A stretch of DNA of 28,874 nucleotides from a virus (Duplodnaviria; Caudoviricetes). Below, piece after piece: positions 10,868-15,004 of the stretch. How positions within the stretch are numbered: the stretch's first letter is position 1; every line of letters begins with the position of its first letter. A program made the translations under genes and the position numbers. The DNA is taken from positions 1-28,874 of the IMG/VR virus record IMGVR_UViG_3300017909_000609. One strand, given 5' to 3'. The notes beneath the pieces are model-generated. The model had not been told where the DNA came from. It saw only the letters and a program-made list of their open reading frames with translations, and did no database searches.

Positions 10868-10897
10868 GTGAGCAGTTTGTCCACATGCTCAGGTGGC
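10868..10897 (-). ncRNA. Small H-type pseudoknot motif, copy 1
   Basis: gCCAC-cUGAGCAu-GUGG-acAAAC-UGCUCAc. Confidence 0.7.
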
Positions 10898-11410: not shown

Positions 11411-11440
11411 GTGAGCAGTTTGACATCATGCTCAGGATGC
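11411..11440 (-). ncRNA. Small H-type pseudoknot motif, copy 2
   Basis: GCAUC-cUGAGCAu-GAUGU-cAAAC-UGCUCAc. Confidence 0.7.
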
Positions 11441-12941: not shown

Positions 12942-12969
12942 CTCACCTCCAAATTTAAGGCACAAAAAA

Positions 12970-12998
12970 TGAGCAGTTTAACGCCATGCTCAGGGCGC
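12970..12998 (-). ncRNA. Small H-type pseudoknot motif, copy 3
   Basis: GCGCC-cUGAGCAu-GGCGU-uAAAC-UGCUCA. Confidence 0.7.
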
Positions 12999-13002
12999 TG
13001 TA

Positions 13003-13031
13003 GGGCAGTTTTACATCGTACCCGTAGGATG
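13003..13031 (-). ncRNA. Small H-type pseudoknot motif, copy 4 (variant)
   Basis: CAUC-cuacGGGUAc-GAUG-uaAAAC-UGCCC; stem 2 changed to GGGUA/UGCCC. Confidence 0.6.
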
Positions 13032-13070
13032 GTTCCCAGTGGAGGAGAGGGCCACTGGTATTGAAAAGGC

Positions 13071-13183
13071 GAGGCATGGCGGGGATCGAACCCGCATCTT
13101 CAGGCCATCTTTTTTGATATGCACAACACTATCTAATCAAGACGGGTTGTACCCTGACGCATTGCTCTAAATGCTACATGCCT
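13071..13183 (-). ncRNA. tRNA-like RNA with a 48-nt insert in place of the anticodon loop
   Basis: Acceptor AGGCAUG/CAUGCCU, U8A9, D stem GCAU/AUGC, anticodon stem UCAGG/CCUGA, variable AGAU, T stem GCGGG/CCCGC, T loop UUCGAUC; no encoded CCA. Confidence 0.75.
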
Positions 13184-13227
13184 ATAAAAGTTTACCCTTT
13201 ACAATGCCACGTTGGTTGTGGTTGTGG

Positions 13228-14812: not shown

Positions 14813-14926
14813 CTCACTGTACAATAAGTACAATCTAGTTAACATATATTGTACTATATATTGTTAACTATATTTTTATATTATAGTTAACTAGATGTTA
14901 CTTATTGTACAATATTATACAGTGAG
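14813..14926. repeat. Large AT-rich nested inverted repeat
   Basis: TGTACAATAAGTA (14818-14830) / TACTTATTGTACA (14899-14911); ATCTAGTTAAC (14833-14843) / GTTAACTAGAT (14886-14896). Confidence 0.8.
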
Positions 14927-14942
14927 ATTAAGGATCTGTCAA
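14914..14942 (-). promoter_or_regulatory. Perfect-consensus sigma70 promoter pointing into the non-coding region
   Basis: TTGACA-N17-TATAAT on the minus strand. Confidence 0.85.
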
Positions 14943-14975: not shown

Positions 14976-15004
14976 TTGACAAAAGTGTAATACAACCCTA
15001 TACT
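14976..15004 (+). promoter_or_regulatory. sigma70 promoter of the packaging/structural arm
   Basis: TTGACA-N17-TATACT with an upstream A/T tract (UP-element-like). Confidence 0.85.

Follow-up and report, generated by a model that had tools for sequence, protein, structure and literature searches.

A tRNA-shaped RNA gene with a conserved 48-nucleotide insert in place of its anticodon loop, in a putative early operon of a marine podophage

Here we describe a gene for a transfer RNA (tRNA)-shaped RNA whose anticodon loop of 7 nucleotides (nt) is replaced by an insert of 48 nt. It is found on the minus strand of IMG/VR virus record IMGVR_UViG_3300017909_000609, of which the whole 28,874-base stretch, estimated to be 55% complete, was analyzed and is referred to as the window. 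The window is built of a leftward replication arm, encoding ribonucleotide reductase (RNR), a Cas4-like nuclease, a DNA polymerase, a primase-helicase and endonuclease I, and a rightward structural arm, encoding terminase, portal, capsid and tail proteins. Its terminase shares 64% identity with the terminases of the Pelagibacter phages HTVC115P, HTVC103P and HTVC104P and 46% with the one from the Puniceispirillum phage HMO-2011, and from these similarities we take the window to be part of the genome of a marine podophage of the HMO-2011 type. In its leftward operon the element lies 45 nt past the stop of a gene of 242 amino acids (aa) with no assigned function. Its parts, read from 13183 to 13071, are as follows.

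13071..13183, minus strand: tRNA-shaped RNA gene of 113 nt, delimited by sequence, minimum-energy fold and a covariance model (R1, 139.7 bits)
13177-13183 with 13072-13078, minus strand: acceptor strands AGGCAUG/CAUGCCU, 7 base pairs (bp)
13159..13174, minus strand: D arm, stem GCAU/AUGC, loop UUAGAGCA without GG
13100..13157, minus strand: anticodon stem UCAGG/CCUGA (13153-13157 with 13100-13104), enclosing the insert
13105..13152, minus strand: 48-nt insert replacing the 7-nt anticodon loop, read from 13152 to 13105
13146-13152 with 13121-13127, minus strand: insert helix S1, GUACAAC/GUUGUGC
13139-13145 with 13105-13111, minus strand: insert helix S2, CCGUCUU/AAGAUGG (AAGAYGG across copies)
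13079..13095, minus strand: T arm GCGGG-UUCGAUC-CCCGC with a canonical T loop

A preliminary description, made from the letters of the window, had reported a cloverleaf with a canonical T loop and 48 nt where 7 are expected, and this proved correct throughout. The smaller landmarks of the window copy include U8 and A9 after the acceptor strand, G26 after the D arm, a variable loop AGAU and the acceptor position 3:70 as G3-C70. The discriminator is C at 13071 and is followed by GCC, so that no CCA is encoded. The D loop UUAGAGCA has no G18 G19 and carries U at position 14 instead of A14. At minimum energy the 113 nt fold into this cloverleaf (-38.2 kcal/mol; z -3.28, the shuffles averaging -27.74), and none of 200 shuffles folded as stably (0/200).

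Further copies were sought by pattern. The exact T-arm and acceptor pattern, run over IMG/VR, gave one further contig (L006), and a pattern of the insert and stem gave five metagenome contigs (L087-L091), one of them (L089) being the L006 contig and another (L090) the IMG/VR contig L096. With the window included, copies of the element stand on 6 distinct contigs and comprise 5 distinct sequences; 3 of the IMG/VR contigs carry it, and an insert-only pattern in IMG/VR returned just the 2 contigs already known. The covariance model R1, which is blind to distant designs because it was built from two near-identical copies, found the element in 2 of 85 sources, in total 775,515 bases taken from related phages around the gene for the terminase or the one of 242 aa. 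It gave no match in the first 50 kb of Pelagibacter phage HTVC115P, and DNA similarity searches against 50,697 phage records were likewise without a match. The element is real, selected and rare, and belongs to a narrow clade.

The copies form two lineages, the first comprising the window and L006/L089 and the second L087, L088, L090/L096 and L091. In the second lineage the T arm has the stem GUGGG/CCCAC and the loop UUCGACU, and the acceptor GGGCAUG/CAUGCUC is followed by a discriminator G and then an encoded CCA. Its D loop, UUAGGAA or UUAGGCA, contains GG, yet also U14. The absence of the D-loop GG and of CCA, pointed out in the preliminary description, is thus a trait of the window's lineage and does not extend to the sister lineage, which has GG and encodes G-CCA.

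Pairing is kept throughout. Across 7 copies (5 distinct sequences) all 175 of 175 pair cells of the cloverleaf, S1 and S2 are standard pairs, the D stem and all 5 anticodon-stem pairs being invariant while the D loop varies. At the T-stem pair in alignment columns 90:104, 3 copies have C-G and 4 have U-A, a compensatory change in the sister lineage, and the acceptor pair 1:112 is G-C, G-U or A-U among the copies (A1-U72 in the window versus G1-U72 in its nearest relative). Between the window and L087, 1 of 48 insert positions differs as against 10 of 65 in the body (Fisher p 0.023), one indel accounting for three of the body differences; counted over the 7 copies, 4 of 48 insert columns are variable (44 are invariant) and 12 of 65 body columns. 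On these sequences the insert appears to be under no less constraint than the tRNA body, an argument against simple decay as well as against a passive spacer. The earlier view that the element reflects selection on shape rather than decay is therefore upheld by the compensatory changes at 90:104 and 1:112, by the pairing of every stem cell and by the conserved insert. The tRNA shape is probably maintained by selection, the direction being clear and the statistics weak.

The insert had also been described as pseudoknot-like. Both S1 and S2 are present in the sequence and cross each other. When the insert was shuffled by mononucleotides 20,000 times, two crossing 7-bp helices appeared in 124 of the shuffles and a single such helix in 7,997. 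The two helices are 100% paired in the 7 copies, with one one-sided change each, from U-G to U-A at 33:62 in S1 and from G-U to G-C at 41:77 in S2. The U-to-C change at column 77 strengthens S2 and disrupts a small hairpin of the window's minimum-energy fold. RNAalifold favors a nested fold, in which GUACAAC forms a 7-nt bulge and S2 is stacked on the anticodon stem and followed by an imperfect inner hairpin, and the change at column 62 is also compatible with this fold, at pair 58:62. The nested alternatives range from -32.8 to -36.0 kcal/mol, a spread of about 3 kcal/mol, and S1 and S2 contribute -5.2 to -8.7 kcal/mol each over an open loop. Because zero linker bases separate S1, S2 and the anticodon stem, we think that a complete pseudoknot of both helices would be strained and is sterically doubtful. 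What stands of the pseudoknot is that both helices exist, cross and fit every variant; it is not singled out, since the nested fold does equally well at a similar stability. The insert may be a pseudoknot, a bulged rod or a switch between both, and the data fit all three.

Known RNA families account for part of the molecule. Like a tRNA, the element has a cloverleaf with a 7-bp acceptor and a canonical T loop (UUCRANY) closed by G53-C61; it lacks the 7-nt loop with U33 and a standard anticodon and, in the window copy, D-loop G18 G19 and A14. ARAGORN, a finder of tRNA and transfer-messenger RNA (tmRNA), reported 0 genes in the window at default settings, and Rfam gave no match there at gathering score. 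In E-value mode the Rfam tRNA model (RF00005) aligned partially to the window copy at 19 bits, with '48' replacing the 7-nt loop. The sister copies reach 44.8-45.6 bits over the full model with the insert skipped, past the gathering score of 29; the window copy, although near-identical to them, never attains it. A match to a known family, an outcome that the preliminary description had named as speaking against it, thus came about for the tRNA body of the sister copies and not for the insert. Up to E 10, the insert matches no riboswitch, ribozyme, small RNA (sRNA) or group I family in Rfam. Its 48 nt fall far below the roughly 200 nt or more, with P3-P9, of a group I core and no Rfam intron or ribozyme matched, in agreement with the early remark that it is too short for a group I intron.

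Two other classes were considered and rejected. As a tmRNA, the element scores 9.7-12.5 bits against a gathering score of 47, through the T arm only, and has neither G3-U70 nor a tag frame. The insert does hold UGAUUAGAUAG at 13129-13139 (minus strand), in which all three frames are stopped within 11 nt, probably by coincidence; the third of these stops is gone in L006/L089 (G to U), and a tmRNA-like tag frame ending at them was discarded, with no tmRNA feature found. As a YrlA or bacterial Y RNA, it has no Rfam match, the Ro-binding motif GNCGAAN(0-1)G is absent from the 113 nt, and no Ro60 is encoded among the 38 open reading frames (ORFs) of the window whose translations were scanned.

The preliminary description had further allowed that homologues might show an ordinary tRNA with a random recent insertion. 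None did: all copies carry the insert, and a pattern for an insert-free allele returned 9 matches in IMG/VR and 0 true alleles, 8 of the matches being without an ARAGORN tRNA call and 1 being an unrelated tRNA-Gln(UUG). A pattern of the 3′ half matched 3 times in 185,579 genomes, twice in tRNA-Gly(UCC) genes of candidate phyla radiation (CPR) genomes and once without a tRNA call. That the 3′ half is Gly-like is a loose hint, and the pattern offers no clue to a host.

The element comes and goes as a unit. Three features define its immediate surroundings.

13064..13186, strand not applicable: extent of the cassette, present in some relatives and absent from others, about 120-123 bp
13036..13058, minus strand: hairpin CCAGUGG-CCCUCUCCU-CCACUGG with a pyrimidine-rich loop, just downstream of the cassette
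12998..13037, minus strand: conserved 40-nt 'anchor' motif GGGAACCAUCCUACGGGUACGAUGUAAAACUGCCCUACAG, exact or near-exact in all relatives

A contig from DNA sequencing run X4 omits 13064-13186 and differs in the flanks by 1 letter, contigs from runs X2 and X8 carry the cassette unchanged, and a contig from run X3 has an empty site in another upstream context. In the relatives L002, L003 and L004, which are without the element, AAACTTT is joined straight to CAATACC, and the element is absent from 5 of the 7 IMG/VR loci that bear the downstream anchor. This clean indel among relatives points to an accessory cassette that measures about 120 bp and occupies a recombination hot spot. The hairpin at 13036-13058 is kept with or without the cassette, its stem changing in a compensatory manner (GTGG/CCAC, GTAG/CTAC, GCG/CGC).

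Other RNAs use the same site, tRNA-Tyr or further structured RNAs beginning a few bases past the anchor in relatives. A normal tRNA-Tyr(GTA) with encoded CCA begins 5 nt after the anchor in two contigs (L006:1336-1421 and L094:594-679, both minus strand), one of which carries the tRNA-shaped element and one not; the window is without tRNA-Tyr. For comparison, 1 of 60 terminase-linked loci scanned has any tRNA. In all four contigs of the second lineage (L087, L088, L090/L096/L100/L105 and L091) a second tRNA-like RNA of 83 nt stands 7 nt upstream of the element (L087 1137-1219, plus strand). Its acceptor measures 5 bp and its T stem 6 bp (UGAGGG-UUCAAUU-CCCUCA); it encodes ACCA, is without a D arm and, in the place of an anticodon arm, bears a rod (6 + 9 bp) ending in a triloop. 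It folds at -34.2 kcal/mol (z -3.61), gives in Rfam a weak tmRNA T-arm match only (14.9 bits), and its exact 3′ pattern matched 1 IMG/VR contig. The hot spot collects tRNA-type cassettes in the phage early region.

Three further structured RNAs were seen past the anchor: one of 101 nt closed by GUGUGA/UCACAC (L002:3863-3963, z -1.39), one of 116 nt closed by GUAGCAG/CUGCUAC (L003:1313-1428, z -2.34), and a further cassette at L006:1056-1149. None matched an Rfam family at threshold, a weak GP20-b score of 23.9 bits standing against a gathering score of 36.2.

The transcriptional setting of the element is suggested by three sites.

14914..14942, minus strand: sigma-70-type promoter TTGACA-17-TATAAT, 12/12 consensus matches
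14976-15004, plus strand: sigma-70-type promoter, 11/12 matches
12963..12992, minus strand: terminator-like hairpin UGAGCA-(11 nt)-UGCUCA followed by UUUUUUG, identified from sequence

The two promoters stand back to back between the replication and structural arms. Such near-consensus sites fit a phage that relies on host RNA polymerase; the term 'RNA polymerase' occurs 0 times in PMC9038755, a paper on HMO-2011-type phages. The element is about 1.75 kb into the leftward operon and a terminator scan found no terminator-like site between the promoter at 14914-14942 and the element, so this promoter likely drives the leftward early operon including the element. The hairpin at 12963-12992 is the first terminator-like site downstream of the element; the simple scan had overlooked it because its loop exceeds 8 nt.

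The preliminary description had named three possible roles, an RNase P/RNase Z processing signal, a tRNA scaffold for an aptamer and a decoy for anticodon nucleases. We tentatively read the element as a gene for a processed, non-decoding tRNA scaffold that displays a conserved, folded module of 48 nt, and would give this reading somewhat less than an even chance. An RNA transcribed from the consensus promoter about 1.75 kb upstream would be cut at its 5′ end by RNase P, relying on the acceptor/T-arm half. Its 3′ end would be trimmed and receive CCA, a sequence encoded in the sister lineage. The resulting RNA of about 113-116 nt would persist, stabilized by the tRNA fold, and with 48 nt for an anticodon loop it would be unable to read codons. 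The conserved module, be it a rod with a 7-nt bulge or a pseudoknot, would then bind or titrate a factor. Our guess is that this factor is a host enzyme or a defense nuclease acting on tRNA, and that the RNA serves as an early accessory decoy. Several defense nucleases cut tRNA arms or tails.

Besides its fold, its conservation, its occurrence as an accessory cassette and its place behind a consensus promoter, two lines of evidence favor a non-decoding RNA. A tRNA-mimic function is suggested by the hot spot that the element shares with tRNA-Tyr and with the second anticodon-less tRNA-like RNA, and a coherent decoding tRNA is disfavored by the anticodon ACA, the discriminator C or G and the lack of an insert-free allele. 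The sections of Chen et al. 2014 drawn on here (PMC4201824) report that one YrlA RNA, whose acceptor stem has 7 bp, is an RNase P substrate and acquires CCA, that RNase P needs the top half of tRNA, and that the tRNA fold has been proposed as a nuclease shield for noncoding RNA (ncRNA). Excerpts of PMC11555353 describe a phage tRNA-Tyr that counters the tRNA-Tyr-degrading effector of retron-Eco7. It is a bolder proposal, and an unlikely one, that small marine phages carry swappable, anticodon-less tRNA-mimic cassettes, of which the present one would be a natural tRNA scaffold with its invariant 48-nt pseudoknot or rod as the active part, made early as an RNA decoy to disarm a tRNA-directed defense or a tRNA-handling enzyme of the host.

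Several observations weigh against the scaffold reading. No partner protein was found consistently adjacent to the element, the flanking genes varying between carriers, and the 38 ORF translations scanned include no RNA-handling enzyme (RNA ligase, splicing endonuclease or Ro60). Words complementary to the element elsewhere in the window, which could mark an antisense target, do not exceed its self-matches. The sequencing runs listed as holding the stretch are 20 marine or seawater DNA runs, with no RNA run among them. The covariation score was matched by 15 of 500 column shuffles of the 5 distinct sequences, and covariation is thin because these few sequences come from one narrow phage clade; the difference between insert and body over all columns is not significant (p 0.17). 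The loss of CCA and of the D-loop GG in the window's lineage could be early decay. Lastly, in the printed precedent of the Lak megaphages such inserts are treated as introns.

This last point leads to an unlikely alternative, a decoding tRNA gene split by a short, 'enigmatic' non-group-I intron that a host or phage activity would remove to leave a 72-nt tRNA. With introns allowed, ARAGORN indeed calls a tRNA-Cys(aca) of 72 nt with a 41-nt intron beside the anticodon in 5 of 6 distinct contigs (the window, L087, L088, L090/L096 and L091; none in L006/L089). The Rfam tRNA scores of the sister copies with the insert skipped, and the CCA and D-loop GG encoded in their lineage, would suit a functional tRNA as well. 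The insert's GUUGUGC pairs with anticodon-loop bases; in nuclear pre-tRNAs, intron bases pair with anticodon-loop bases. The product, however, makes little sense. U33 is obtained only in 7-nt loops that keep GUACA..., giving the anticodon ACA, and other splice registers shift the anticodon, to GAU in lineage 1 versus GAC in lineage 2. Bacterial tRNA-Cys does not normally have an anticodon with A34 (ACA), and where tRNA-Cys has the discriminator U73 the element has C or G. No bulge-helix-bulge (two 3-nt bulges and a 4-bp helix) was seen on the folds by eye, no dedicated tool having been run; the insert has a single 7-nt bulge on the 5′ strand in one fold and a 16-nt bulge on the 3′ strand in the other. 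Added to this are the lack of a ribozyme or intron family match, the lack of a ligase or splicing endonuclease among the ORFs scanned, the missing insert-free allele and an insert more conserved than its 'exons'. A spliced decoding tRNA would thus seem possible but incoherent.

The closest printed parallel nevertheless comes from inserts of this kind. In the parts of Devoto et al. 2019 used here (PMC6784885, Table S6), Lak megaphage tRNA genes are given possible introns of 23-141 nt at the anticodon loop, of no known class, highly conserved and identical across cohorts, and their removal is left unexplained. As far as those parts describe them, the two systems share short non-group-I inserts in the anticodon loop that are conserved between carriers (23-141 nt versus 41-48 nt). 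They differ in that the Lak tRNAs have assignable anticodons (Tyr GTA, Thr TGT) while the window element has a formal reading of ACA only, and in that Lak genes exist with and without an insert whereas here only the whole cassette comes and goes. The Lak phages are 540-kb gut phages and the element belongs to an HMO-2011-type marine podophage of about 50 kb. Unlike the Lak inserts, the element is paired with a second anticodon-less mimic in lineage 2. It represents a variant form among phage tRNA genes whose anticodon-loop inserts lack an explanation.

Somewhat less probable than an intron is a processing or 3′-end element, in which the tRNA part would be a handle that lets RNase P and trimming cut the early polycistronic transcript at a fixed place, or would protect the end of the first early transcript, while the excised RNA would have no function of its own. 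The position is suitable, 45 nt past the stop of the 242-aa gene and upstream of conserved hairpins and of the first terminator-like hairpin, and a hairpin family repeated in the intergenic spaces of the operon resembles processing or regulatory sites. The tRNA top half is the part required by RNase P according to the sections of PMC4201824 cited above. Yet the element is absent from most relatives with the same flanking genes, and a mere handle needs neither a near-invariant 48-nt insert nor an encoded CCA.

Lower again we place a decaying tRNA gene that acquired an insertion and hitch-hikes in a few close phages. Such a gene would be rare, as the element is (2 of 85 sources; 3 IMG/VR contigs including the window), and the window's lineage lacks CCA, the D-loop GG and A14 (it has U14) and shows an acceptor indel; the window copy is moreover missed by default ARAGORN and by Rfam at gathering score. 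Decay does not explain why all stem pairs are kept in all copies, with compensatory changes such as A1-U72 versus G1-U72, why the insert has changed less than the body, or why two lineages, with differences at 10 of 65 body columns between them, keep to one design.

Phage attP sites frequently carry a partial copy of a tRNA gene. An origin of the element as an attachment site, or as the remains of a past integration into a tRNA gene of the host, is nonetheless highly improbable: integrases lie upstream of the replication module in some HMO-2011-type phages (according to the part of PMC9038755 used here), but no integrase is found among the 38 ORF translations scanned, the cloverleaf is complete and two-sided rather than a 3′ fragment, and the 3′-half pattern gave no marine host tRNA.

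If the scaffold reading is followed, the nearest likeness is a laboratory one. Ponchon and Dardel are said to have expressed recombinant RNA in E. coli with engineered tRNA scaffolds. In that design, as here, the tRNA body is kept and the anticodon loop is swapped for a cargo on the stem, which is processed or protected; the engineered scaffold is a laboratory design, whereas the window element is a natural, conserved phage gene. Most YrlA RNAs have the reverse topology to an acceptor-end RNA with an anticodon-side module. YrlA, as described in the sections of Chen et al. cited above, is likewise a non-decoding ncRNA with a tRNA-like module; the window RNA differs in that it ends at the acceptor stem and carries its extra module on the anticodon side. 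With tmRNA it shares a tRNA-like acceptor/T-arm half joined to a potentially pseudoknotted RNA in the place of the anticodon arm, but unlike tmRNA it has a full D arm and an anticodon stem.

Anti-defense tRNAs of phages resemble the element in being early, accessory, tRNA-type genes of lytic phages, and a tRNA-Tyr(GTA) shares its hot spot. The T5 tRNA-Tyr acts against retron-Eco7 PtuAB (excerpts of PMC11555353). Such tRNAs are working replacements for cleaved tRNAs, whereas the window RNA has no usable anticodon and for that reason could counter a tRNA-targeting defense only as a decoy. In our literature search we came upon no account of a tRNA-like decoy in phages, nor of a tRNA-like RNA in HMO-2011-type phages or pelagiphages; PMC9038755 mentions tRNAs only as a tRNAscan-SE step.

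Should the RNA be made and be stable, phages of about 50 kb that infect abundant ocean bacteria would be using tRNA look-alikes for purposes beyond decoding, and the 'tRNA intron' puzzle would reach beyond the Lak phages into a group unrelated to them. Both outcomes, a novel way of splicing tRNA or an RNA that serves as decoy or scaffold, would be new to bacteria and their phages. Were the decoy reading true, the element would be the first natural counterpart of the laboratory tRNA scaffold and a new class of RNA-based anti-defense. Near-identical phages with and without the cassette exist and provide a natural experiment.

Two of the hairpins downstream of the element belong to a family repeated between the genes of the early operon, with the following members.

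10870-10881, minus strand: intergenic hairpin
11413-11424, minus strand: intergenic hairpin
12963-12992, minus strand: the terminator-like hairpin described above
13003-13023, minus strand: intergenic hairpin, included in the anchor

The family has the stem UGAGCA/UGCUCA, and one variant, GGGUA/UGCCC, retains pairing. Its loop of 11 nt follows the conserved pattern YGnnGnnAAAC, with 4 matches against 1.31 expected. From their sequences, these hairpins may be sites of processing, termination or protein binding.

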